Notes under the pieces: model-generated
The model's database searches: none
What the model saw: only the letters and a program-made list of their open reading frames with translations
What the model was told of the DNA's origin: nothing
Translations under genes and position numbers: made by a program
Virus record (IMG/VR): IMGVR_UViG_3300042260_000337
DNA length: 64,000 nt
DNA from: a virus
Taxonomy: Duplodnaviria > Caudoviricetes
Reading direction: 5' to 3' (one strand)
Shown here: positions 50,446 through 64,000 of the stretch, piece by piece
Layout of the letters: each line of letters starts with the position of its first letter
How positions within the stretch are numbered: position 1 is the stretch's first letter

Positions 50446-51426
50446 ATGGCAAAAATAGTAATCGGTGACTTAGATGTGTTTTATCTAAGCTATGATGAAC
50501 CAAACAAAGAAGAACATTGGGCGAATCTTTTGCAGAAGTTCCCGTTTGCTAAACGAGTGGATGGCGTCAAAGGATTTGACAATGCACATAAAGAATGTGC
50601 AAGGCAAAGTGAAACTGAACGTTTTATTACGATTGATGGCGACAATATTGTCAGCGACGAAAAGTTCTTTGACCTTGAAATTAGTATCCCAGAAAATACA
50701 AACATGGCAAACTCAGTTCTTAGTTGGTCGGCAAAGAATGTAGTAAACGGTCTGGTGTATGGAAATGGTGGAATTAAGTGTTGGCCAGTTCAACTTGTGT
50801 TGGACATGAAAACCCACGAAAACGCTGATAACGAATCAAAGAAGTTAGACTTCTGTTGGGATTTGAATTACATTCAAATGAACAATGTCTACTCACATGT
50901 GTTCAATGCTGGTTCTCCATTTCAGGCGTTCCGTTCAGGTTATCGTGAAGGTGTAAAGATGTCTCTGGATCAAGGACATGTTGTTCCAGCAAAGCAGTTC
51001 AAAAAACGTATATGGCCAAAGAACTATGAGCGTCTTTTGACTTGGTGCAATATAGGAGCAGACGTTGAAAATGGACTATGGGCCATATACGGCGCAAGAT
51101 TGGGATGCTTGGAAACTAATATAACAAAGTCGCTTCCAATTGATGGTATATCAAACTATGAATGGTTTAAGGATTATTTTGACGCTGAAATTCTTCCAGA
51201 ATTTAAAAATGGCGATGAGTATTGTAATAAAACCAAAGTTCACTGGAGCTACGATAAACTGTATGATGCCACACTTGATGTTGGCGACCAATTGATGGAT
51301 TCATTAGCAATGGAACTATGCGACCCGACTCCTGAGATGTCTGCGTTCTTCAAACGAGTTTATGTGAACCCACCACGGGTGGCAAACCCAATAGCCACCG
51401 AAAAACAAACTGGATGGGACAAGTAA
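50446..51426 (+). CDS. Glycosyltransferase-like protein (GT-A)
   Basis: DVFYLSYDEPN, GVKGFDNAHKECA, FITIDGDN (DxD). Confidence 0.6.
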   Translation: MAKIVIGDLDVFYLSYDEPNKEEHWANLLQKFPFAKRVDGVKGFDNAHKECARQSETERFITIDGDNIVSDEKFFDLEISIPENTNMANSVLSWSAKNVVNGLVYGNGGIKCWPVQLVLDMKTHENADNESKKLDFCWDLNYIQMNNVYSHVFNAGSPFQAFRSGYREGVKMSLDQGHVVPAKQFKKRIWPKNYERLLTWCNIGADVENGLWAIYGARLGCLETNITKSLPIDGISNYEWFKDYFDAEILPEFKNGDEYCNKTKVHWSYDKLYDATLDVGDQLMDSLAMELCDPTPEMSAFFKRVYVNPPRVANPIATEKQTGWDK

Positions 51427-53012
51427 TGAGTAAAACTCTAGATGATTTTAACTGGGAACGGCAAAAAGGAAGTAATGACATAATATCGTCACATTCTAAT
51501 GTCGAAAATGTAAAAGTATTGCTTGATAGCAAGGGACCAGGATTTTGCCTAGCAAAATTCAAGCAAGTGACACTTCATTTGGGAACTGGGTTGGTGCATT
51601 CATGCCATCACCCTAGTCCCCATAAGATTGACAAAACCGAGTTAGAAAACAACGTAATGACATTATTCAATACGTCAAGATTGAAACAAGTTCGCAAGCA
51701 AATGCTAAACGGAGAAAGACCTCGCGAATGCGACTATTGTTGGCGCATTGAAGATAACAAAAGCACCAGCGACCGTCATTTCAAGAGTGTTGAGCCATGG
51801 GCGATTGGCGACCATGACAAAATTGCGTCATACACTGGCGACGAGGATATATTTCCCTCATATCTTGAGGTTGATTTTAGTAACGTATGTAACCTACAAT
51901 GCACTTATTGTGGACCAGAGTTCAGTTCAAAATGGGTTGAAGACCTTAAACATAACGGTCCATTGAAAGTTTTAGAGGGAACTCCAAGCGAAAGTTGGGT
52001 TCAGGGCTGGCAAGACTTAGAAACGCTAAACATAAAAAATCGTGATGTCAACCCTTATATTGATGCATTTTGGGAATGGTGGCCATCTGCATATCCACAT
52101 CTAAAACATTACCGAATTACGGGCGGTGAACCTCTGATGAGTAAAGAAACCTTCCGCAGTATGGATTGGTTTATAGAGAACCCAAACCCAAATCTTGAGT
52201 TCAGTATCAATACAAATCTTTCTGTTCCCGATAAATTGTGGGAAAAATTTGTTGAAAAGTTAAAGTTACTGAATGATGGTAAAACTGTTGCAAAGATTAC
52301 GGTTTACACCAGTGTTGAAGGATGGGGTGCAGCCGCTGAGTATGCAAGAACTGGTCTGGATTTTGAACTCTTTAAGCGTAGATTTGAAGAATTGGCTTCT
52401 ATAGGAAACGTCCGTTGTGTGATTATGGCCGCTTTCAATATATTTAGTGTCACTACATTTCAGAAACTACTTGAATGGGTGTATGAGTTAAAATGCAAGC
52501 ATAATACTAATGTTGGAGCAATAGGGATGGAAAAAGAAACTGGGTATGCGTTAGCATCTCCTAGTTTATCAGACCGTGAAACTCACAATCCAACTCTTGC
52601 TCGTTCATACGTAGTGGGGCTTGATATTCCATATTTGAGAAGTCCTGCCATGTTGGATGCACACAATATTTCGCATGAGTTGGTTGAAAAGTATTTGATA
52701 CCATCACTAGACTACATGGCAAGCCATGCTGCATGGGATTCTTGGAGTAATCATCAAGGATTTGAACGTCACGAAATTGAAAAACTTCGTAGAATTGTTG
52801 TTCATCGTATGTATCATAACAGAAAGAACGACCCAACCGACAGCCATTTTGAGACTCTTAAACAGCGGGCAATGTTTTACGACTTTGTAAATGAAAACGA
52901 CAAGCGCAGAGGGTCAAACTTTTTGAACTCGTTTCCTGAAATGACTGAGTTCTACCAGTTGTGTGAAGCCGCGAAAAAAGAGTTTATCTCGCTTCTTGGA
53001 AATAAACAGTAA
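51426..53012 (+). CDS. Radical SAM enzyme 1 with N-terminal SPASM/twitch-like Cys domain
   Basis: CNLQCTYC (CxxxCxxC), ITGGEPL, INTN. N-terminal FCLAK...HSCHH...ECDYCW. Start set at MSKTL. Confidence 0.9.
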   Translation: MSKTLDDFNWERQKGSNDIISSHSNVENVKVLLDSKGPGFCLAKFKQVTLHLGTGLVHSCHHPSPHKIDKTELENNVMTLFNTSRLKQVRKQMLNGERPRECDYCWRIEDNKSTSDRHFKSVEPWAIGDHDKIASYTGDEDIFPSYLEVDFSNVCNLQCTYCGPEFSSKWVEDLKHNGPLKVLEGTPSESWVQGWQDLETLNIKNRDVNPYIDAFWEWWPSAYPHLKHYRITGGEPLMSKETFRSMDWFIENPNPNLEFSINTNLSVPDKLWEKFVEKLKLLNDGKTVAKITVYTSVEGWGAAAEYARTGLDFELFKRRFEELASIGNVRCVIMAAFNIFSVTTFQKLLEWVYELKCKHNTNVGAIGMEKETGYALASPSLSDRETHNPTLARSYVVGLDIPYLRSPAMLDAHNISHELVEKYLIPSLDYMASHAAWDSWSNHQGFERHEIEKLRRIVVHRMYHNRKNDPTDSHFETLKQRAMFYDFVNENDKRRGSNFLNSFPEMTEFYQLCEAAKKEFISLLGNKQ

Positions 53013-53016
53013 ATAA

Positions 53017-54432
53017 ATGCAACAACAGCTATCTGATTACAACTGGAATGTAAACTTAGAACAGCGACTTCAAAACATGAAGTCGCTGTTGAACTCTACT
53101 GGAACTGGATTTTGTTTGGCAAAATTCAAACAAGTTACTATGCATCTTTCTCTTGGCAAGGTGCATTCTTGCCACCATCCATATGCACACAAGATTGACC
53201 CAGTGGACGTTCAACAAAATCCAAGTTTACTGTTTAATACGCCAGTGCTGAAGACAGCTAGAAAAGAAATGTTGTCTGGTGAGCGCCCGTCAGAGTGTAA
53301 CTACTGTTGGAGAGTAGAAGATTCTGACGATGAAAACTTTTCTGATAGACATCTAAAAAGTTCCGATACCTGGGCAATTGACGATCACGATACCATTGCA
53401 TCTTACACTGGTGATGAAGATATATACCCATCGTATTTGGAAGTTAGTTTTAATAACGCATGTAATTTGAAATGTCTGTATTGCGGACCAGAGTTCAGTT
53501 CAAAATGGGCAGAAGAAATAAAGAGCAATGGGCAAATACCCTTACTATCAGGCACAAAAGACTTTGAAATACATAATTATTTTAGGCCAAATGCTATTAT
53601 AAAGAACAGAGAATATAATCCATACACTGAAGCATTTTGGAAATGGTGGCCAGAAGTATATAAGCATCTTCAGGTTTTTAGAATTACTGGCGGCGAACCT
53701 TTAATGAGCAAAGACACGTTTAAATCACTGGACTGGTTTATAGAAAACCCAAATAAAAATTTAGAATTATGTATCAATAGCAATTTCAGCGTCGAAGATT
53801 CGTTATGGAAAAAGTTTATTGACAAAATAATCACGTTGCAAAATTCAGGAAACGTTAAAACCATAACCATATATACAAGTGTTGAGGCATGGGCTGAACG
53901 TGCAGAATATATAAGAACTGGTCTTGATTTTAATTTGCTATTGAATAGAATTGATGAGTGTTTATCCAAGGGAGTTCGCGTGGATATTATGGCAGCGTTC
54001 AACATACTGTCATTATCATCATATAAGCAATTGTTACAATGGGTTTTAAGCAGAAAAAAAATATATAATAAAGATAAAACACTAATTGCAATAGATACTG
54101 CATACGTTCGTGGCCCCGACCATTTGGATGCAATATTTTTAACAAGTGACCTGTTAAATTACTTAAAAGATATTACAGATTATGTCAAACAAAATATTTC
54201 AAATGATGGATATCACATGTATGAATATGAGAAAGTATCCAGAATATATTCAACTGTTTTGAATAGAAAAATATCAACGCAATCTAAAATTAAATGCAGA
54301 GCAAAGTTTTTTGATTACATTAATGAACTTGATACTCGGTATGGCGTAAAATTTCTAAATTGCTTTCCCGAATATTCTAAATATTACAGAGTTGCAAAGA
54401 AAGCCAGAAAGAGATTTAAGGATATAAGATGA
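53017..54432 (+). CDS. Radical SAM enzyme 2, paralog of 1
   Basis: CNLKCLYC, ITGGEPL, N-terminal FCLAK...HSCHH...ECNYCW. Confidence 0.9.
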   Translation: MQQQLSDYNWNVNLEQRLQNMKSLLNSTGTGFCLAKFKQVTMHLSLGKVHSCHHPYAHKIDPVDVQQNPSLLFNTPVLKTARKEMLSGERPSECNYCWRVEDSDDENFSDRHLKSSDTWAIDDHDTIASYTGDEDIYPSYLEVSFNNACNLKCLYCGPEFSSKWAEEIKSNGQIPLLSGTKDFEIHNYFRPNAIIKNREYNPYTEAFWKWWPEVYKHLQVFRITGGEPLMSKDTFKSLDWFIENPNKNLELCINSNFSVEDSLWKKFIDKIITLQNSGNVKTITIYTSVEAWAERAEYIRTGLDFNLLLNRIDECLSKGVRVDIMAAFNILSLSSYKQLLQWVLSRKKIYNKDKTLIAIDTAYVRGPDHLDAIFLTSDLLNYLKDITDYVKQNISNDGYHMYEYEKVSRIYSTVLNRKISTQSKIKCRAKFFDYINELDTRYGVKFLNCFPEYSKYYRVAKKARKRFKDIR

Positions 54433-55235
54433 AAAAAATTGCAGTTATAGGGTGTAGTCACAGTTCGTATGACCAAGTTTTTCATGGACCTAGTAGCGAT
54501 GGAAAAGACTGGGTTCATCATGTGTCAACTATTGCCCCAGAGTTTGAATTTCATAGTTTTGCGTGTGAAGGGCATGGTCCATTATATTATGACTACACTC
54601 TCAAAGAGATCGCAACAAAATACGAGCCTAAGTTTTTTGACACCTTGATAGTTCAATACACGGTCGGGGGGAGATGGATATTTCCTCTTAACGCTGGAAA
54701 TCTATGGAACCCAAACCAAAATACCTATACCGATTTTGATTCGACCAATATCACTGACAACTACAAATTCTATAAGCTATTTCCGCAGCGTGTCTCATTG
54801 TCCAGAAACCGAGCGACAGCGTGGCATGTAAATAGAAAAGATTACTTGTATCGCAGAAGGATACGACAAATAGAAGTATCGTTGGATGAAATATACCAGC
54901 CCGATGGTATTGTTACAACATACGAATCAAATTTCTCAAGGACATTGGTTCCTTTATATGGTCAGTATTTTAACAATATTTTTTATTTCGATTTTAGCAA
55001 TACAATGTTTAACGCAACTACTACGGACAAAGATTTTCAATATAGAAACAATATTGGATGGGATAAACCATTTAAGAACTATGTAACAGACAAATATGGA
55101 TTAGAATACGTGGCGGAATTTTTGTTTGATAGCTCGTTTCACTGCTCAAAACTTGGAAATGAAGTGTTGGTGAATGAATATCTAAATGAGAGTCTTCTTG
55201 GGGATTATCTAGGAACAAGAGGTAAACTAGTTTGA
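54429..55235 (+). CDS. SGNH/GDSL-like hydrolase or acyltransferase (putative)
   Basis: IAVIGCSHS (block I GxS) and C-terminal DSSFH (DxxH) followed by a helix. Confidence 0.5.
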   Translation: MKKIAVIGCSHSSYDQVFHGPSSDGKDWVHHVSTIAPEFEFHSFACEGHGPLYYDYTLKEIATKYEPKFFDTLIVQYTVGGRWIFPLNAGNLWNPNQNTYTDFDSTNITDNYKFYKLFPQRVSLSRNRATAWHVNRKDYLYRRRIRQIEVSLDEIYQPDGIVTTYESNFSRTLVPLYGQYFNNIFYFDFSNTMFNATTTDKDFQYRNNIGWDKPFKNYVTDKYGLEYVAEFLFDSSFHCSKLGNEVLVNEYLNESLLGDYLGTRGKLV

Positions 55236-56497
55236 TTAATTTACATGAAAATAAACACATATGTGCATTGGCATGGAACCATCTTCACGTTACGATAGAA
55301 GGGCGTGTTGCGCCCTGTTGCGTTTATACATCTTATACGTCAGAATCAGAGAAGCTATATAACTTGAAAACACATACTTTGTCTGAGGCTATAAACAGCC
55401 CTGGAATGAAAGAGATGCGAAAGGCAATGATTGAGGGAAAGCCCCATGGATTGTGTTCCGTATGCGATTACAATTTAGAGAATGGCATTAGGTCACCAAG
55501 GGATAAATTCAATGAACGATATATGGAACAAACTATAAATCTGATAGAAAAAACAAATCCAGATGGTTCTCTCGACATTGAAAATTTTAATCCAATATAC
55601 GTAGATTTTCGATTCAGCAATCTGTGTAATTTGAGATGCCGTATGTGTTCTATCCAAGCAAGCAGCGCATGGTACAACGAAACAGTAGAATACAACAAAC
55701 TAACAAATGGTGGACCCGTATACTATGATAAGAAGTTTGAAAACAATAATTCTAGCGAACAAGTAATACACTTACTTGACAGTGTTGAACACATGTATTG
55801 GGCTGGCGGCGAACCGTTATTACTTGATGAGCATTATTCTATACTGAAGCATTTGATAGATTCGGGTAGGGCTGCGCAAGTAAGTCTGGTTTACAACACA
55901 AACATGACGATTTCAAAATACAAAGGAACTCCTGTAGTAGAATACTGGAAGCATTTCAAACACGTATTCGTAGTTGGTAGTATAGATGGCATTGAAGCAG
56001 TGTCAGATTACATACGAACTGGATCGTCATGGGAAAAAACAAAGGAAGTTTTCGAATCATTTAAACGGTCTGGATATGAGAACATCCAAGTTCATCCGTG
56101 TTTAACTGTAAGCATGTTGAACATATTATACATTCCAGAACTTGTCAAGTGGCTGTATCAAAATAAATGGTTTGATGACGATATGGCAGAAATCGCCATA
56201 AATTTTGTTGATTACCCACCCGAAATGTCAATAAAATATATTCCAAGAGAACATAGAGAAACACTGAGTAACATGTTTTTAGAACTATACGATTGGTTAC
56301 GAGAGCGTGGCCATCCTCGGTCAGTTGATCCTTTGAATACGATACTGAAATATGTTAATGGGTTTAATTGCTCCGATGATGAAATAGAAAAAAATGTTTT
56401 GTCTCTTATAAGAAGATTGGATATATATGACATAACCGGTAAGCTGAATTGGAGAAACAGCTTACCAGAATTAGAAAAGATATTAAGTGGCTATTGA
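55232..56497 (+). CDS. Radical SAM enzyme 3 with N-terminal auxiliary Cys domain
   Basis: CNLRCRMC, WAGGEPL, YNTN. N-terminal ICALAW...PCC...LCSVC. Confidence 0.9.
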   Translation: MINLHENKHICALAWNHLHVTIEGRVAPCCVYTSYTSESEKLYNLKTHTLSEAINSPGMKEMRKAMIEGKPHGLCSVCDYNLENGIRSPRDKFNERYMEQTINLIEKTNPDGSLDIENFNPIYVDFRFSNLCNLRCRMCSIQASSAWYNETVEYNKLTNGGPVYYDKKFENNNSSEQVIHLLDSVEHMYWAGGEPLLLDEHYSILKHLIDSGRAAQVSLVYNTNMTISKYKGTPVVEYWKHFKHVFVVGSIDGIEAVSDYIRTGSSWEKTKEVFESFKRSGYENIQVHPCLTVSMLNILYIPELVKWLYQNKWFDDDMAEIAINFVDYPPEMSIKYIPREHRETLSNMFLELYDWLRERGHPRSVDPLNTILKYVNGFNCSDDEIEKNVLSLIRRLDIYDITGKLNWRNSLPELEKILSGY

Positions 56498-56920
56498 CTT
56501 TATCATGGTATAGTTTATGTTGTGCTTGAACATCCATACCATTAAGAATTCCTCCATTTTCCATTCTTCATTCTTGACCGCATGTAATGGGGTATTAACA
56601 AGATTGTTTACTGAATGAACCCATCTTGAAAATGTTGTCATTTTGATAAAGGTCATAAATGAATCTGCGTAAAATGTATTATAATTGTCAATAAAGCATA
56701 CCGTGTTTTTTTCTGCTCCATATATATAATCGGTGCGATTTTTTTCTGAAATATTATCTAATGAAAAACTTCTTGGTGAGCATATGACTCCCTTTACTTG
56801 AAGTTTTGTTTTTAGGGTTTCGCTGCTGATATTTTTCATTGCAAGTTGCCATGCTTTTTTATAATGGTTCGAATCTATTCTTGATTCTGGAATTATCCCT
56901 GTTATATATTGTTCAACCAT
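56483..56920 (-). CDS. Hypothetical protein
   Basis: 145-aa ORF overlapping the upstream GT-like gene. Confidence 0.6.
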   Translation of the reverse strand: MVEQYITGIIPESRIDSNHYKKAWQLAMKNISSETLKTKLQVKGVICSPRSFSLDNISEKNRTDYIYGAEKNTVCFIDNYNTFYADSFMTFIKMTTFSRWVHSVNNLVNTPLHAVKNEEWKMEEFLMVWMFKHNINYTMIKSIAT

Positions 56921-57884
56921 TGTTCCAATAGCTTCCTATTTTTATAAAATCGTCGTTGTCGTTTGGGTTAAGTTCTTTTATTTCTTTATTTGGTCTTGCA
57001 ACAATCATATGTATTTCGTCATGAATATCATTGATAAGTCTTTCTTCAATATTATTCATAGTTCCTCCGTCTTTCCATCTTTCTGAAATGCCTGGTGTTC
57101 TTATAATTGGAACTGAGATCGGACTTCCAAGTCTTCCGAATAGAACATGGAAGTTCATAAAGTCCCTAAATGCTTCATACTTTGGAAATGAGGTGTTTCC
57201 GTATATAGAAGTTTTTTTATGCATATAATCAATCATCTCATAGCATATTCTATCTGCCGCCGCCCCTGTAAATACAATCAACAAGTCATTTATCATATTA
57301 CAAAACATCGTATAGCGCCCAGGGTCGTTTCCTACGTATGCGTGGTTGGATGCGGGACTTATAATAGAATCTGGATCATTTGGCCAAACTTTTAAGTCAT
57401 CTGACGATTTTATTTTTTCTATTAGTTGTGGTATATAATCCATTGGCCTAAAGATTACATCATATCTTAGCATTATCACAGCGTCATAAAATATACCAGT
57501 CTCGGCCTCATATTTCTGTTTTAACAAAAGGCTATCAATCACCCCCGCTGGGGACAATACGCCATGATGATTGAACTCTGTTCTTTCTTTGTTTTCATTT
57601 TGTGTGATTAACTCAAACGGGTCAGTTACAAAATGAATACTTTTTGGATTCAATACATCTGTTATGGTTTTTCTAATATGGTCAACCTCATCATCATTTA
57701 TTGTTTCAACGCCCATCTCCATCAAGCGTCTTGATGCGTGAAATGATAGGCTGTTTTTTGTTGAACAAAATATGTCTATGTTTTCTACATTTATATTGTC
57801 GATTATAGATTTTAAATGTGGCAGACAAACGTCTCCTGAACGATATTGGCCATAAAAACATATAGCCAAGTTTACTATATTCAT
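56913..57884 (-). CDS. Putative glycosyltransferase (AICFYGQYR family)
   Basis: NLAICFYGQYR, DIFCSTK, YDAVIMLRYD (RxD), NDLL. Confidence 0.55.
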   Translation of the reverse strand: MNIVNLAICFYGQYRSGDVCLPHLKSIIDNINVENIDIFCSTKNSLSFHASRRLMEMGVETINDDEVDHIRKTITDVLNPKSIHFVTDPFELITQNENKERTEFNHHGVLSPAGVIDSLLLKQKYEAETGIFYDAVIMLRYDVIFRPMDYIPQLIEKIKSSDDLKVWPNDPDSIISPASNHAYVGNDPGRYTMFCNMINDLLIVFTGAAADRICYEMIDYMHKKTSIYGNTSFPKYEAFRDFMNFHVLFGRLGSPISVPIIRTPGISERWKDGGTMNNIEERLINDIHDEIHMIVARPNKEIKELNPNDNDDFIKIGSYWNNG

Positions 57885-57902
57885 ATGATAAACTCCTTCG
57901 CT

Positions 57903-58880
57903 TTATTTATCTTGGGTTGTAATCCATATACTCATTATTTTGTCAAAGTCATCTTCGTTTGATGGGTTCATATTATTGATGTCTGGATGTGGCCTGACTA
58001 GAGCAAACATTGGCTGAGTTTTTAAGTTGCAATTCGCTCTTTCATCAAAGTTATGTATGTCACCACTTGCTTCATTTTTATTTTTTGGATACTTGGTGAT
58101 ATGCGGGGCATCTATATGATGGAGCGAAATTCTATTTGCTAGATGTGTTAGCATACTGTGGCAATCATACATATGTTTGTATTTACTATACTTATGATTT
58201 TCATTGGTATATACACCAACAACAGTATCAACTAAGTTGACAAGTTCGTAACACAACCTGTCTGCGCCCGAACCAGTAAATGCAATAAATAAATCTGCAA
58301 TAGGATTTGGAAGAATGCTATATGGATGTGTTACATTCATTAAAAATGCGTCATTTATGATTCCCGCTATTATCGAATCTGGGTCGTTGGGCCATATCTT
58401 CAAATCATCTTCTTTTTGCATCTGGTATATGAATTTTTGTATGTAATCAATCGGTCTTATCATTATATCATATCTCATCAAAATTACGGCATCATAAAAC
58501 ATTTCATTCTCTGCTTCATATTGCTGTTTTAACAAAATAGAATCGATGATGCCAGTGAATACATAAAAATCTTTGCGAACATCTGAGTTCATTCTTTCTA
58601 TATCGTCCACTAGGACATTTATTCTTTTAGGAGAGAGTAATTTTTTTAAGGTGTTGACTGTTTTTTCAATTTCGCTGGCATCAACTGAATATACTGAGTT
58701 TATATCAATTTCAGAAATTGACCCATCTGCGGTATGATATGAAACTGTATCTTTTACTGAACAAAATATGTCAACGTTGACATTTTTTATTTGAGTGAGC
58801 ACATCTTTCAAATGCGGAACACATATGTCGCCCGTTCTGTATTGACCATAAAAACAAATTGCAAGATTAGTTATTTTCAT
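57903..58880 (-). CDS. Putative glycosyltransferase, paralog of 56913..57884
   Basis: NLAICFYGQYR, YDAVILMRYD, IWPNDPDSII. Start set at MKITN (58880). Confidence 0.55.
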   Translation of the reverse strand: MKITNLAICFYGQYRTGDICVPHLKDVLTQIKNVNVDIFCSVKDTVSYHTADGSISEIDINSVYSVDASEIEKTVNTLKKLLSPKRINVLVDDIERMNSDVRKDFYVFTGIIDSILLKQQYEAENEMFYDAVILMRYDIMIRPIDYIQKFIYQMQKEDDLKIWPNDPDSIIAGIINDAFLMNVTHPYSILPNPIADLFIAFTGSGADRLCYELVNLVDTVVGVYTNENHKYSKYKHMYDCHSMLTHLANRISLHHIDAPHITKYPKNKNEASGDIHNFDERANCNLKTQPMFALVRPHPDINNMNPSNEDDFDKIMSIWITTQDK

Positions 58881-58885
58881 ATTCA

Positions 58886-58913
58886 TATTTATGTCAAAAT
58901 AAATGCATAAATA
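58886..58913. promoter_or_regulatory. Back-to-back late promoters CATAAATA
   Basis: Minus strand 58886-58893 (5 nt before ATG 58880) and plus strand 58906-58913 (upstream of 58935). Confidence 0.55.
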
Positions 58914-58934
58914 TAATAATAGTAGGATTTAATT

Positions 58935-60236
58935 TTGACACAACCAATAGATTATAAGAATAACAAAAGAATATGTTCTCTTGCGTGGACACACCTTCAT
59001 GTGACCACTACAGGAAGGGTTGCGCCTTGTGGGCAGTATGTTAATTCAAAATCCCCAGACATAAAACTTGCGAACATACAGGATAGTTCATTGGATGAAT
59101 GTATCAATAGTTCTGGGATGAAATACATTCGTTCCATGATGCTACAGAATAAGCCGAATGAGATGTGTTCATTGTGCGAATACAAAATGCAACAGGGTAT
59201 TGAATCTACTAAAGACAGGTTCAATGCATTATATTTGGAAAAAACTAAATTTGCCATTGAAGCCACACGAGCCGATGGCCATATTGATATAGATGACTAC
59301 AAACCTGTGTTCTTTGATGTTAGATTTGGAAATCTTTGTAATCTTCGATGCCGAATGTGCAACTGGGAAGCAAGTAGTGCATGGTTTGATGAAACAAAGG
59401 AAATAGGAAAACAAAACCTAGTGACCTTTGATACTATAAGATTGGATGATTCAAGCCCAAAATTTGTAGCAAATGGAGCGTATGATAAGATAGAACATCT
59501 TTTGCAGTATGCAGAAAAAATGTATTTTGCTGGAGGTGAACCACTTCTCATGGAAGAACACTACCGAGCACTTCAATATCTAATTGATTCGGGAAAATCC
59601 AAAGATGTCGAATTGCATTACAGCACCAACTATACTATTTCAAAATACAAAGGCAAACTGGTTGCAGATTATTGGAAAGAGTTCAAACAAGTAATAGTGG
59701 CTGGTAGCGTGGATGGCATCGAAGAAGTTTCTGACTACATACGAACAGGATCGTCGTGGGAAAAGATGAAACAGGTTGTATCTGAAATGAAACCGCAGGG
59801 CGACGAATACAATAACATAACCCTGTCTCCATGTTTTTCTGTAAGTATAATGAATATATTTCATAGCCCAAGATTTTTTAAATGGTGTTTTGAAAATGGA
59901 TGGTTTGAAAAAAATCTATCCGTAATCGCCATTAATTATGTAGATTATCCTCCAGATTTGAGTATAAAATATTTGCCTTATGCAGCAAAGAAAACTGTAG
60001 AAGAAGAATATGTTGATTTATCAAGATGGCTAATTGAAAATGGACACCCATTGAGTGCTAAAGTTGTAAACGAAATTATAACGTATATGAATGGGGGAGA
60101 TATCACACAAGCTGATATCGATTATAGAATGAGTCAAGCGGTAAACAGAATGGATGTGTATGACAAAACATCGCATCTCAATTGGAAAGAAACACTACCA
60201 GAGTTGAAACATGCTCTTTTAGCATATATAAAATAG
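58935..60236 (+). CDS. Radical SAM enzyme 4, paralog of 3
   Basis: CNLRCRMC, FAGGEPL, YSTN. N-terminal ICSLAW...PC...MCSLC. Confidence 0.9.
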   Translation: MTQPIDYKNNKRICSLAWTHLHVTTTGRVAPCGQYVNSKSPDIKLANIQDSSLDECINSSGMKYIRSMMLQNKPNEMCSLCEYKMQQGIESTKDRFNALYLEKTKFAIEATRADGHIDIDDYKPVFFDVRFGNLCNLRCRMCNWEASSAWFDETKEIGKQNLVTFDTIRLDDSSPKFVANGAYDKIEHLLQYAEKMYFAGGEPLLMEEHYRALQYLIDSGKSKDVELHYSTNYTISKYKGKLVADYWKEFKQVIVAGSVDGIEEVSDYIRTGSSWEKMKQVVSEMKPQGDEYNNITLSPCFSVSIMNIFHSPRFFKWCFENGWFEKNLSVIAINYVDYPPDLSIKYLPYAAKKTVEEEYVDLSRWLIENGHPLSAKVVNEIITYMNGGDITQADIDYRMSQAVNRMDVYDKTSHLNWKETLPELKHALLAYIK

Positions 60237-60239
60237 TTC

Positions 60240-60268
60240 TTGAAGTTATTATATAAATTTGGTATAAT
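60240..60268 (+). promoter_or_regulatory. sigma70 promoter for the RuBisCO-like operon
   Basis: TTGAAG-17 nt-TATAAT with extended TG. SD GAGGT before ATG 60299. Confidence 0.75.
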
Positions 60269-60298
60269 GTAATAAAATATTCAAAAAAGAGGTATCCA

Positions 60299-61339
60299 AT
60301 GAATACATATAGAGTCACATATCGTGTTGAGAGTAGCAATATAGAAAAAGCTGCTGACGCCATAGTATTGGGGCAAAGTGTCGGTAATCCAGACATTCGT
60401 TCTTCATATGAAGAAGCAGACGGAATACAACAAAGCAAAGCGGAATTGATTTCCATCAACGGCAACGAGGTAGTGATTGACTTCAAGTGGAGAAACTTGC
60501 ACTCCACGACTGATATTGGTCAAATGCTTTGCACCATAAATGGCGGGCAGAGCGATATCGCACTGTTGGAATCATGCAGAATCGTTGGTCTTGAACTGAA
60601 CCAACCGTTTGTAAAGAAGTCTCCGCACAAGACATTAGTCAAAAGAAATCGTCCAGCAATTGGTAGTATTGTGAAACCAAAAGCTGGACTTACCTCCGAA
60701 CAATTGCGAGACATCACAACACAAATGTGTGATGGCGGAATTGACTTTATTAAAGAAGATGAAATTTTGGCTGACGCTGCGTATCTTCCACTCAGACAGA
60801 GATTGGATATTGTTCAGCCAATTATGGAAAAATATCCTGAAACCGTGTATACATATTGCACAAATGGAAATCCAGAACATCTAGTTTCTCAGCTTGATAT
60901 GGTGAAAGAGTGCAATGGCGATGGAGTTCATATTAATTTCTGGAGCGGCCTTGGGGCTTATTCTGATAGCAACCAACGAGGGTTCTTCACACATTTCCAA
61001 CGAAGTGGAATTAGAGTATTGACTGATCCTAGAAATCCGTGGGGAATTGATTGGCCTGTGTTGGTCAAAATGGCAATTTATCAAGGCATTGATAGTATAC
61101 ATGTTGGTATGATTGGCGGGTATTATCCTGGCGACCATCAAGAGGTTAGAGATGCAGTCAAGCTATGTCAAGAACACAATGTGTGGGCTGCGTTAAGCTG
61201 TGGAATGACACCAGACATAGCGAAGTCAATTCGTGATGAGATTGGAGACCATTGGCTTGCAAATGTTGGCGGATGGTTGCACACTGGGGACAGCATCGAA
61301 CAGAAAATAACTGAATTGCGGATGGCATTTGATGCTTAA
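60299..61339 (+). CDS. RuBisCO-like protein (form IV-like, non-carboxylating)
   Basis: GSIVKPKAG, GGIDFIKEDE, THFQRSG, IHVG, LSCG and VGG align by eye to the RuBisCO large-subunit active-site segments. Confidence 0.9.
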   Translation: MNTYRVTYRVESSNIEKAADAIVLGQSVGNPDIRSSYEEADGIQQSKAELISINGNEVVIDFKWRNLHSTTDIGQMLCTINGGQSDIALLESCRIVGLELNQPFVKKSPHKTLVKRNRPAIGSIVKPKAGLTSEQLRDITTQMCDGGIDFIKEDEILADAAYLPLRQRLDIVQPIMEKYPETVYTYCTNGNPEHLVSQLDMVKECNGDGVHINFWSGLGAYSDSNQRGFFTHFQRSGIRVLTDPRNPWGIDWPVLVKMAIYQGIDSIHVGMIGGYYPGDHQEVRDAVKLCQEHNVWAALSCGMTPDIAKSIRDEIGDHWLANVGGWLHTGDSIEQKITELRMAFDA

Positions 61340-62030
61340 TGTATTGCAGTTGTGTGCTGGTAAAGGGTCAAGGTTTGCAGAATACTCGCAAACCCCTAAA
61401 CCATTTTTAGATGTTCACGGCGACCCAATGTTTGTCGCTGCAATCAAATCTTTGAATTTGGGAAATGATGTTCGCCATCATTTCCTATTTCAAGAACGTG
61501 CGCTAACACAATACAAACCTTCGCAATATGTTGATGGATTGTTTTATGGCATAGACCATTACACTGATGGCGCAGCTACAAGCGCCGCATATGTTATAAG
61601 AAACAATAAGTTTCGACACGAACCATGGTTGATAGTTGACTGTGACTTTATAGTATCATACGATTCTACAACATTCAAATCCGTATACAATCACACGAAT
61701 TGTATTTTCGTTCAAAACCGTTCATTTGATATAAAAAGTAGCTATAGCTGCGTTGACTCAAACATGAATATATTAGGTGTGGCAGAAAAGCAACCTATCA
61801 GTAGATATCGCAACAGCGGTCAATACCATTGGGTTTCTGGCGATGTTTTTATCCAGTCGTATGATTTTTATACAGATAATGGATTGGTGTCTCTTGGTGA
61901 ATACTATACTGCTCCACTATATAACTATGCAATACAGAATGGAATACCAACCATGGCGATTGAGGTTGATAGTTTTACTCCGATAGGAACGCCTATGGAT
62001 TACGAAAGGTATATACATGAGATTCGCTAA
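61332..62030 (+). CDS. Sugar/polyol-phosphate nucleotidyltransferase (GT-A fold)
   Basis: LCAGKGSRF...PKP, GAATS, VDCD, VAEK, GEYY. Confidence 0.85.
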   Translation: MLNVLQLCAGKGSRFAEYSQTPKPFLDVHGDPMFVAAIKSLNLGNDVRHHFLFQERALTQYKPSQYVDGLFYGIDHYTDGAATSAAYVIRNNKFRHEPWLIVDCDFIVSYDSTTFKSVYNHTNCIFVQNRSFDIKSSYSCVDSNMNILGVAEKQPISRYRNSGQYHWVSGDVFIQSYDFYTDNGLVSLGEYYTAPLYNYAIQNGIPTMAIEVDSFTPIGTPMDYERYIHEIR

Positions 62031-62340
62031 ATTATCTGATTTCAAAGGTGGGTGGGTGATTGGAGACTTTGAACCCACTATGCTAAAAACAGACCAGTTT
62101 GAGGTAGCAGTTTTGCACCACACGGCTGGAAAACAAATAGAAAAACACTATCAAGTTATCGCTACTGAATACAATGTCATGATTAGTGGCAAAATGAATG
62201 TAAATGGAACTATCGTCACGTCAGGTGACGTATTTACATATGAACCAATGGAAATTACAGAAGTTGAAGTTCTGGAAGATACAGTGGTCATATGTGTCAA
62301 AACCCCAAGTATTCCAAACGATAAAGTGGTAATTGACTGA
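62017..62340 (+). CDS. Cupin-domain protein (possible sugar epimerase/isomerase)
   Basis: 107 aa. GWVIGDFEP, KHYQ...EYNVMISGKM, cupin beta pattern. Confidence 0.75.
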   Translation: MRFAKLSDFKGGWVIGDFEPTMLKTDQFEVAVLHHTAGKQIEKHYQVIATEYNVMISGKMNVNGTIVTSGDVFTYEPMEITEVEVLEDTVVICVKTPSIPNDKVVID

Positions 62341-62780
62341 TGCCAATTTTTATCGCACATCGTGGAAATACGAATGGTATAGAATTATCGTTTGAGAATA
62401 GAATAGACTATCTTGGTCACGCACTATCTATTGGGTATGGAATAGAATGTGATGTATGCTACTGGAAAGACAAATATTATTTTGGGCATGATGCGCCGCA
62501 AGAAGAGATAGATACTAATATCCTGTTAGCAGATAATTCATTTTGTCATGCGAAAGATATGCAATCTTTGCTGTATCTGAACTCAATTGGTGCTAATTGT
62601 TTTTGGCATGAAAGCGATAAAATGACATACACTAGTAAAGGAAATATATGGTGCTATCCAGGTGTATTTCCAATTTCAAAAAACGCAGTATGGCTTGATT
62701 TGTTGGGAATACCATTGCCTGAAAATATACATCATACAATATATGGTATTTGTGGAGATACATTCATAAATACCATATGA
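62340..62780 (+). CDS. Glycerophosphodiester phosphodiesterase/PI-PLC-like protein, truncated fold
   Basis: IAHRGN, IECDV, GHD, HAK. Confidence 0.7.
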   Translation: MPIFIAHRGNTNGIELSFENRIDYLGHALSIGYGIECDVCYWKDKYYFGHDAPQEEIDTNILLADNSFCHAKDMQSLLYLNSIGANCFWHESDKMTYTSKGNIWCYPGVFPISKNAVWLDLLGIPLPENIHHTIYGICGDTFINTI

Positions 62781-63517
62781 ATGTAAATATTATAAGTCAA
62801 TTCATTTCTGGAAGAAGCGGTGCAAAAGTTTATTTGGCCGAAAAAAATGGTATTGTCGGTGTCTATAAAACAAACGTAAAAGACCCATATGGTGTTTACG
62901 AATTATCAAAAAAACTTCCGTTTCGGACGCCAGAGATATATGATATTTCCGATGATTCTATATTCATGGAATACATAAACGGCAGACCATTAAAAGATGT
63001 TCTAAGAGACAATGATCCTATAAAAATAGAAATAGTATCTGACTTTATATTATCTTATGTAGATTACGCATTAAATTCTTCTCTGGGAATGTATGATTTC
63101 TCAGAAATAATAAACAAAAAAATAGAACAGGTTTCTGAATTTGTTTCAACGTCATATCTTTCAAACATAAAAACCGTCTATCCAACATCAATAACCCACG
63201 GTGATTTCACGTTTGATAATATGATATATTGTGAGAACGAGGTTTGTCTGATTGACTTGTCGCCAACTCCATTTACAAGTGTATATTTTGATATGAACAA
63301 GTTGAGACAAGATTTGACTGGATATTGGTTTGTCCGACAAGAGCCTTCTTATGCTCCTTGGGTGTCGGCATGTAACAAAATATATAGCATCATAGATACT
63401 AAGCACCCTAGCATGTTTGACGATGGACTTTACAATCTGATGATTTCAAGAATACTCCCATATTGCAAGAATAATGATTTTGATTTTAATTACGTGTTGA
63501 ATATGTTAATCGGTTAA
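62777..63517 (+). CDS. APH/choline-kinase-like phosphotransferase
   Basis: SGRSGAKV, MEYING, THGDFTFDN (Brenner motif), LID. Start set at ATG 62777. Confidence 0.8.
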   Translation: MNVNIISQFISGRSGAKVYLAEKNGIVGVYKTNVKDPYGVYELSKKLPFRTPEIYDISDDSIFMEYINGRPLKDVLRDNDPIKIEIVSDFILSYVDYALNSSLGMYDFSEIINKKIEQVSEFVSTSYLSNIKTVYPTSITHGDFTFDNMIYCENEVCLIDLSPTPFTSVYFDMNKLRQDLTGYWFVRQEPSYAPWVSACNKIYSIIDTKHPSMFDDGLYNLMISRILPYCKNNDFDFNYVLNMLIG

Positions 63518-63948
63518 GTTTGCGTTTTTGCCCATAAGTCTTTATATTTGAACCAAGTGTCTCTTTCAAGTATATCCAAGTGTTCTAACCCATCTCTTAC
63601 TATAGTTACGTTGACTTTTGTTTGAGATAATTCATTCTTAAACTCGTGCATTTCAATATTATTTTTGGCAAATATGTCATATATTAGCTCGTGTATATTT
63701 GTTATGGTGTCATCTAACACTCTATCAGACTGACGCCTTTTACCAAATTCCCCTACGTATTTTATAAGTTCACTTGCGAATATATCCATTGAATTACCAA
63801 TAGAAAAAAAAGCAACATCTTGTAACATTTTTATTATGTTGCCTTTTTTGTTGTAGTTTCCCATTCTGAAATGAAATACATGATTTGGATTTGTAAAGTT
63901 TTTTGCATTCATCAGGCTGTTTACAATAAAATCTAACGTTTCGTGCAT
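63514..63948 (-). CDS. Hypothetical protein
   Basis: 144-aa ORF converging on the kinase gene. No recognisable motif. Confidence 0.55.
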   Translation of the reverse strand: MHETLDFIVNSLMNAKNFTNPNHVFHFRMGNYNKKGNIIKMLQDVAFFSIGNSMDIFASELIKYVGEFGKRRQSDRVLDDTITNIHELIYDIFAKNNIEMHEFKNELSQTKVNVTIVRDGLEHLDILERDTWFKYKDLWAKTQT

Positions 63949-64000
63949 TGGATATATTATTGAATCATATCGCTGTAAAATTGTTATGTCGTAATGAAAA

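Follow-up and report, generated by a model that had tools for sequence, protein, structure and literature searches.

A RuBisCO-like protein tied to a sugar-phosphate nucleotidyltransferase in a jumbo phage operon points to a possible glycan-building role for the RuBisCO fold

Why would a phage carry a relative of RuBisCO in the same tight operon as a nucleotidyltransferase, a cupin, a phosphodiesterase and a kinase? Besides CO2 fixation, only a few reactions of salvage and catabolism are known for the RuBisCO fold. The question is raised by the IMG/VR virus record IMGVR_UViG_3300042260_000337, of which a stretch of 64,000 nucleotides, referred to here as the window, was analyzed. Five plus-strand open reading frames (ORFs) at positions 60299-63517 encode a RuBisCO-like protein (RLP), a nucleotidyltransferase (NTase), a single-domain cupin, a miniature glycerophosphodiester phosphodiesterase-like protein (mini-GDPD) and a kinase of the protein-kinase-like (PKL) fold. 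We consider it likely that this operon is a biosynthetic cassette whose product, a sugar, ketol or polyol phosphate activated with a nucleotide, goes into a surface or virion glycan.

The RLP lies far under the cut-offs of all curated NCBIfam models, with 52-83 bits for the RuBisCO forms (cut-offs 438-497) and 32-46 bits for the MtnW models (cut-offs 409-514), while OiaX is its second-best match in that collection. Its AlphaFold2 (AF2) model, with a predicted local distance difference test (pLDDT) score of 88.8, has the RuBisCO large-subunit fold, an N-terminal alpha/beta domain followed by a C-terminal TIM barrel, and reaches query-normalized TM-scores of 0.79-0.86 to form I and III RuBisCOs and an RLP (Foldseek; 0.85 to RuBisCO). 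Residue equivalences were drawn from profile alignments to solved RuBisCOs, that is, from sequence alignment and not from structure superposition, and conservation was counted over 108 family members, no two of them identical. In all 108, the equivalents of K175, K177, K201, D203, E204, S379, G381, and G403 are unchanged; those of H327 and G404 are retained in 106, and the R295 position is occupied by K or R. The window RLP keeps K175, K177, K201, D203, E204, R295, H327, S379, G381, and G403/404, of which the KPK motif and the carbamate lysine with the metal ligands correspond to K126, K128, K152, D154, and E155 in its own numbering. Carboxylation residues are substituted just as invariantly, namely E60 to G (G25), N123 to G (G83), H294 to Q (Q234), and K334 to Y (Y275), and the family has invariant residues of its own (Q234, Y275, C301, H211, and N213). 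By this alignment the RLP is predicted to retain the carbamate-lysine/Mg enolization centre together with both phosphate sites and, because of the invariant substitutions at the carboxylation residues, to be unable to fix CO2.

The profile of the NTase family, encoded by the second gene, matches PDB entry 4evw, an uncharacterized "NDP-sugar pyrophosphorylase," over its full length (E 5e-37), followed by mannose-1-phosphate guanylyltransferases (GMPP), HddC, RmlA, and GlmU (1e-13 to 1e-6). The nucleotide-binding signature GxGxR...K (G11, G13, R15, K24) is invariant in the family; the window NTase taken alone scores 21.9 bits against Pfam (PF00483/PF12804 type), under the cut-off of 27. With sugar-1-phosphate enzymes as its nearest solved relatives, the NTase is predicted to be of the sugar-phosphate-activating type.

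Evidence of linkage comes from other genomes. Searches of 50,697 GenBank phage records by blastn with the operon and by tblastn with the RLP returned no match, and a single-sequence scan of IMG/VR found none. Profile scans, by comparison, recovered RLP relatives on 385 IMG/VR contigs and in 50 species genomes, and 80 of these viral contigs together with the 50 cellular genomes make up the 130 RLP loci considered here. Among the cellular carriers are a complete Pelagibacter chromosome (SAR11), Legionella maceachernii, L. nautarum, L. drozanskii, Nonomuraea rosea, Azospirillum, and Turneriella, as well as bacteria of the candidate phyla radiation (CPR), among them a Beckwithbacteria metagenome-assembled genome (MAG; L094, 34% identity), and DPANN archaea. 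The closest relatives of the RLP and of the kinase show 72-85% identity, and a 356-kb NCBI contig is among their carriers. Linkage was counted in the 99 loci whose RLP has flanks of 2.5 kb or more on each side. An NTase lies within 2.5 kb in 96 of them, with varying gene order and strand, accompanied by both cupin and mini-GDPD in 14, by the cupin in 21, by the mini-GDPD in 22 and by neither in 39. Grouping the RLPs at 60% identity gave 22 clusters, of which 20 have the NTase, 16 the cupin and 10 the mini-GDPD. The conserved unit is therefore RLP plus NTase, to which cupin and mini-GDPD are often added; these two are regarded as accessory because 39 of the 99 loci have neither. In four loci (L097, L101, L107, and L132, from DPANN archaea and a planctomycete MAG) two more paralogous NTases of this family follow the RLP-NTase pair, a hint that one cluster may supply several activated donors.

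Natural fusions join the same genes. A search among longer proteins revealed NTase-RLP fusions of about 637 aa, namely P0151, in which residues 4-239 align to the window NTase and 260-601 to the RLP, and seven others with PF00483 and PF00016. The 813-aa protein P0150 unites RLP (1-375), NTase (395-637), and cupin (709-811) in the gene order of the window operon; it is metagenomic, encoded on a 10-kb contig, and would be a handy single protein for biochemistry. Additionally, NTase and cupin share one reading frame in five viral loci (L059, L067, L068, L072, and L073). The last of these, labeled a giant-virus MAG (IMGVR_UViG_GVMAG-M-3300023174-129_000001), has an RLP, an NTase-cupin fusion and a mini-GDPD. 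Because natural fusions join the first three genes, it is very likely that RLP, NTase, and cupin serve a shared pathway.

The two accessory genes are recognizable by motif and structure. In the alignment of the cupin family the metal motif HxH(x)4E(x)6G reads H44-x-H46-(x)4-E51-(x)6-G58, and its PDB matches are cupin_2 and quercetinase structures (E 1e-5 to 8e-4). The second histidine of the motif is Q in the window copy and in L009, and His in the other 18 aligned sequences. The mini-GDPD has no Pfam match (PF03009) at E 0.01, yet its profile finds the GDPD structure 7e0v over the N-terminal motif (E 3e-4), and H7, R8, E19/N20, E36, D38, H50, and D51 are invariant or almost so in the family alignment. 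Its AF2 model (pLDDT 92.8) is a trimmed barrel. Foldseek with this model gave a weak match (E 0.02), and VIA-align placed about 140 of its 146 residues on the whole barrels of 22 GDPD structures (Z 7.4-10.7), which favors a GDPD-type barrel for the model.

What is built with these enzymes can be approached through their neighbors. Marine phage RLP loci have two or three copies of GT25 glycosyltransferases and a TylF-like methyltransferase nearby. In cellular RLP loci the neighbors comprise several GT2 enzymes, GT9, WavE and methyltransferases of the FkbM/RfbT and Methyltransf_11 types. A 2-hydroxyacid dehydrogenase, a cytidylyltransferase of the CMP-sugar type and an epimerase/dehydratase of the short-chain dehydrogenase/reductase (SDR) class occur there as well. 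Four Legionellaceae loci (L123, L124, L126, and L127) have a conserved LicD-family phosphotransferase gene immediately upstream of RLP-NTase, in divergent orientation; their hosts are also culturable carriers of the cassette. RLP neighborhoods are thus those of surface-glycan biosynthesis.

Hints to the substrate come from paralogues of the NTase that are fused to other enzymes. The cyanophage proteins Bellamy gp206 (L002, 4838-5995) and SynMITS9220M01_192 (L001, 4838-5995) combine an NTase with RpiB/LacAB (E 4e-32); in GenBank both are annotated as "phosphatase" despite these domains. In the Synechococcus phage S-SKS1, the 475-aa SWZG_00042 (L133, 7001-8428) joins an NTase to RibB, the 3,4-dihydroxy-2-butanone 4-phosphate (DHBP) synthase (E 5e-65), a fusion that suggests a nucleotide-activated C4 ketol; its annotation mentions DHBP synthase only and omits the NTase part. 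Other family members have a HAD_2 domain (S-CAM9, B23, S-8S56, L049, and Pelagibacter). RpiB and RibB act on ribose and ribulose 5-phosphate by enediolate chemistry, as RuBisCO-fold enzymes do. Bellamy and SynMITS9220M01 have the NTase-RpiB fusion, the cupin, the mini-GDPD and a protein of family F17, and no RLP. That RpiB and RLP may be mutually exclusive alternatives stays a lead, because just two RpiB fusions are known. Taken by analogy, the fusions, LicD and the GDPD-type enzyme suggest, as a lead only, a nucleotide-activated ketol or polyol phosphate derived from pentose phosphate, possibly transferred as a phosphodiester and comparable to CDP-ribitol and CDP-arabinitol. The "branched pentose or polyol" that had been proposed for this operon from its sequence alone is conjectural, the sole substrate hints being the RpiB, RibB, and HAD fusions of the NTase family and the LicD beside the Legionellaceae RLP.

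The kinase is of a different standing. It scores 24 bits against the RIO1 model (cut-off 22) and matches Bud32 models with E 1e-10, and its profile finds Bud32, RIO, and APH structures in the PDB (E 1e-4 to 1e-2). It carries HGDxxxxN and IDxS motifs, and the invariants of its family, as seen in 25 sequences, comprise a G-loop (G12/S14), VxK (K31), HGDxTxDN (H141-G-D143...N148), and ID (D160); it is probably a small-molecule kinase. The family has 29 members, many of them on large contigs, and no member was present in any of the 130 other RLP loci examined; compared by hhalign with the 20 largest neighbor families of RLP loci, the kinase reached no probability above 50%. It is a small jumbo-phage family, a local addition outside the conserved RLP core. 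Three IMG/VR loci carry relatives of the kinase but no RLP: in L137 and L139 an NTase-family gene follows immediately downstream, and in L141 a HAD-NTase and a mini-GDPD lie close by. By analogy with the pairs LicA-LicC and AmgK-MurU, the most fitting reading of the kinase is that of a lineage-specific enzyme that feeds the NTase. The first-pass annotation of this DNA, which had proposed a pathway to an activated sugar and had set co-occurrence of the genes in other genomes as its test in advance, was thus borne out strongly for RLP and NTase and well for cupin and phosphodiesterase, and failed for the kinase. Its pathway idea stands in outline, through linkage, fusions, glycan clusters, and NTase type, with the kinase falling outside the conserved set.

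The following order of steps can be envisaged. The RLP, with its carbamylated lysine and Mg2+ centre, would enolize and isomerize a phosphorylated keto-sugar, probably a ribose- or ribulose-phosphate derivative, without carboxylation. The NTase would join the resulting phosphate ester to a nucleoside monophosphate (NMP), giving a donor linked to a nucleoside diphosphate (NDP), and the metal cupin may isomerize or epimerize the sugar in its free or nucleotide-bound form. The mini-GDPD could form or cleave a phosphodiester of the polyol-phosphate type, in trimming, editing or release, while the lineage-specific kinase may provide phosphorylated substrate for the NTase. Nearby glycosyltransferases or LicD-type phosphotransferases would then install the unit. 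A bolder extension, which we regard as possible but offer tentatively, is that with this family the RuBisCO superfamily may have its first anabolic branch, one that would perform an as yet undescribed enolization or rearrangement on a substrate of the ketopentose type, either phosphorylated or linked to a nucleotide. Its product, after coupling to a nucleotide, would be a new glycan donor in phages, SAR11, Legionellaceae, CPR, and DPANN, with the phage-specific kinase of the window adding a salvage entry point.

Several points weigh against a biosynthetic cassette. Gene identities, linkage, and natural fusions are direct results; from these we infer every enzymatic step, and with it the substrate, product, and nucleotide specificity of all members. 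To our knowledge, all characterized RLPs serve salvage or catabolism and none is biosynthetic (MtnW, the Rhodospirillum rubrum RLP, and OiaX), and GDPDs are usually hydrolytic. Further points are the 39 loci with RLP and NTase only, the lack of the kinase in all 130 other RLP loci and Q46 in the metal motif of the window cupin. Moreover, the pentose-phosphate hint derives from fusions of NTase paralogues and not from the RLP-linked NTase itself, the solved enzymes nearest to this NTase handle sugar 1-phosphates, and RibB co-occurs with RLP in L078.

Could the operon serve salvage or breakdown instead? In methionine salvage, MtnK is the kinase, MtnW the RLP enolase, and MtnD the cupin dioxygenase, so that an RLP, a PKL-fold kinase and a cupin next to four radical SAM genes could resemble a set that salvages their methylthioadenosine or 5'-deoxyadenosine by-products; the methylthioribose kinase 2olc even appears in the profile search with the kinase (E 0.085). 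However, the near-invariable partner of the RLP is an NTase, which has no role in salvage, the radical SAM family occurs in only 14 loci, the kinase is absent from all other RLP loci, the MtnW scores are those given above, and no MtnA- or MtnB-like gene was seen among the ORFs of 45-64 kb, to which the family scans of window genes extended. We judge a salvage set highly improbable, and the earlier statement that this is not a methionine-salvage operon is supported, on account of the NTase partnership and the low MtnW scores. A catabolic or host-takeover module, in which the GDPD would attack teichoic acid or lipid head groups of the host and the polyol phosphate set free would be degraded by RLP and cupin, as in apionate and related pathways, would suit the hydrolytic nature of GDPDs, the virion GDPD domain of phage K gp155 and the rank of OiaX among the NCBIfam matches. 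It is unlikely nonetheless: an NTase fused to the RLP argues for anabolism, the neighbors are glycosyltransferases and methyltransferases and not transporters or catabolic dehydrogenases, and the module is also found within cellular clusters of the lipopolysaccharide (LPS) type.

The same cellular clusters bear on the idea that NTase, kinase, and phosphodiesterase act on nucleotides and prepare a modified nucleotide or a precursor for DNA hypermodification. Jumbo phages often modify their DNA, all three enzymes are of nucleotide-handling types and a deoxynucleoside kinase (dNK)-like gene lies near the RLP in Nonomuraea, yet the cassette recurs among cellular surface-glycan genes (GT2, GT9, WavE, and LicD), the NTase has its nearest kin among sugar-1-phosphate enzymes, and neither a DNA glycosyltransferase nor an enzyme of base modification was identified here, which together leave this reading very unlikely. 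A true RuBisCO that boosts host carbon metabolism by CO2 fixation or AMP salvage is hardly conceivable. The fold and an intact carbamate/Mg site would suit it, but the four invariant substitutions at carboxylation residues, RuBisCO-model scores far under their cut-offs and the lack of a DeoA- or E2b2-like gene in the ORF scan of 45-64 kb do not. The evidence, therefore, favors a biosynthetic cassette for an activated glycan precursor.

How does this cassette compare with known systems? Characterized RLPs include MtnW/YkrW, a 2,3-diketo-5-methylthiopentyl-1-phosphate (DK-MTP-1-P) enolase, the R. rubrum methylthioribulose-1-phosphate (MTRu-1-P) isomerase and OiaX, a 3-oxo-isoapionate-4-phosphate decarboxylase. 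They share with the window RLP the fold and the KPK plus K-x-D-E centre for enolizing a phosphorylated keto compound, but measure 400-430 aa against 346 aa here, whereas the window RLP has invariant residues of its own and an anabolic NTase setting. ManC/AlgA, the bifunctional GDP-mannose pyrophosphorylase/phosphomannose isomerase (PMI), likewise has an NTase followed by a cupin, and here too the two are sometimes one polypeptide (L059, P0150); however, the cassette cupin has 107 aa and no PMI-family match, no phosphomannomutase was identified, and an RLP is added. The LicA-LicC-LicD system (choline kinase, CTP:phosphocholine cytidylyltransferase, and phosphotransferase) and AmgK-MurU similarly place a PKL-fold small-molecule kinase beside an RmlA-fold NTase, with LicD recurring in the four Legionellaceae loci and MurU as a weak match in the NCBIfam scan, although the cassette genes are not members of these families at the sequence level and the window has no LicD. 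The mini-GDPD has the HRG, EN, ExD, and HD motifs and the barrel topology of GlpQ/UgpQ GDPDs (PF03009; Z up to 10.7) in 146 aa, where those enzymes have 220-330 aa. "Form IV-like" RLPs of phages and Beckwithbacteria have been published, with their function left open (Jaffe et al., 2019, Mol Biol Evol, PMC6389311), in a text that makes no mention of nucleotidyltransferase, cupin or glycosyl neighbors and contains no neighborhood analysis. That clade resembles ours as a divergent phage-borne RuBisCO homologue of large myovirus-type genomes that lacks carboxylase residues, and a Beckwithbacteria member (L094) is present here too, a tentative comparison drawn from the 385 IMG/VR contigs and this MAG at 34% identity. 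It differs in that the RLP is here tied to NTase, cupin, and GDPD by synteny and fusions and is common in cellular genomes (SAR11, Legionellaceae, and DPANN). Our literature search found no paper describing an RLP-NTase-cupin-GDPD cassette.

The layout of the operon is given in Table 1. The first-pass annotation had described five genes whose starts and stops overlap, and the coordinates confirm four overlapping junctions, just as family, motif, and structure matches confirm all five gene types it named. The RLP stop (61339) overlaps the NTase start by 8 nt at ATG 61332 or by 11 nt at TTG 61329, the NTase stop (62030) and the cupin ATG (62017) overlap by 14 nt, the cupin and mini-GDPD by 1 nt (TGATG, with the ATG at 62340), and the mini-GDPD and kinase by 4 nt (ATGA, 62777-62780). 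For the kinase, ATG 62777 is the likelier start because the database gene call has 246 aa. The same annotation had placed one sigma70 promoter before the five genes. The site at 60240-60268, with 10/12 matches, indeed ranks first among the 25 promoter-like sites of the region 58700-64000 (5.3 kb), but 25.2 are expected from shuffled sequence, and it is because this count equals chance that the promoter is no more than plausible. Read-through is possible, since the radical SAM gene upstream runs in the same direction. The promoter spacer contains a TATAAATT box (60252-60259); as a candidate late-promoter box, TATAAATW proved uninformative, with 9 matches in the window against 14 expected by chance.

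Table 1. Positions of the operon genes, candidate expression signals and surrounding genes in the window.
Feature	Position	Strand	Match or remark
Candidate sigma-70-like promoter	60240-60268	+	TTGAAG-17 nt-TATAAT, TG just before -10; in the 62-nt gap upstream of the RLP gene
Shine-Dalgarno-like AAGAGG	60287-60292	+	6 nt before the RLP ATG; read from sequence
Short non-carboxylating RLP (predicted), 346 aa	60299-61339	+	PF00016, E 3e-28, over the gathering score
Sugar-phosphate NTase (predicted), RmlA/GMPP/GlmU-N fold	61332-62030; from TTG 61329, 233 aa	+	phrog_3980, E 7e-29
Single-domain cupin, 107 aa	62017-62340	+	phrog_24762, E 4e-33
Miniature GDPD-like phosphodiesterase, 146 aa	62340-62780	+	HRG...EN...ExD...HD catalytic motifs
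PKL-fold kinase, Bud32/RIO/APH-like	62777-63517 (246 aa) or 62750-63517 (from TTG, 255 aa)	+	RIO1, E 3e-5; APH
Context outside the five-gene unit	51414-60236		Radical SAM and F17-like genes
N-terminal-twitch radical SAM genes, four paralogues within 9 kb	51414-53012, 53017-54432, 55232-56497, 58935-60236		NF033640, E 1e-89 to 1e-106
F17-like paralogues, 323 and 327 aa	56913-57884, 57903-58886	-	No Pfam match
Convergent ORF, 144 aa	63514-63948	-	4-nt overlap with the kinase stop; closes the operon

The wider setting is that of a jumbo phage, of whose genome the window is a portion. Its major capsid protein shows 70% identity to those of the Pseudomonas phage PA5oct, the Vibrio phage 2.275.O and the Sinorhizobium phage Phosso, portal, head, and tail proteins and a 3134-aa fiber-like ORF are encoded, and the five-gene operon forms the end of a gene island located after the tail and fiber genes. 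Homologues of the radical SAM family (NF033640) accompany the RLP in 13-14 other viral loci. The genes upstream that had been called glycosyltransferase-like turned out to belong to an unnamed viral family and their transferase role is putative: the N-terminal ~145 aa of both minus-strand proteins match family F17 (hhalign probability 98%), which adjoins the cupin in cyanophages and is annotated once as a "capsular polysaccharide biosynthesis protein." In the ESM Atlas the F17-like proteins fall into virus-only clusters, some with DUF7796 or Glyco_transf_92. Kinship of LicD with F17, F2, and other unnamed neighbor families was considered and rejected (hhalign probabilities of at most 1.5%). 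The convergent 144-aa ORF has no PHROG match and no relative among the neighbor families of RLP loci.

Overall, synteny and fusion link this large family of strictly conserved RLPs with a sugar-activating enzyme within viral and prokaryotic glycan clusters, including those of the abundant SAR11. With the triple fusion P0150, the biochemistry of the cassette could be approached through a single protein. If the cassette yields a new nucleotide-linked donor, the RuBisCO superfamily would gain a reaction type, and microbial surfaces, perhaps those of virions as well, would have one of their unknown building blocks named. It would also explain phage "RuBisCO" genes, which are easily mis-scored in viromes as auxiliary genes for carbon fixation. 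As far as its sequences allow us to judge, the cassette points to a glycan-building job for the RuBisCO fold.

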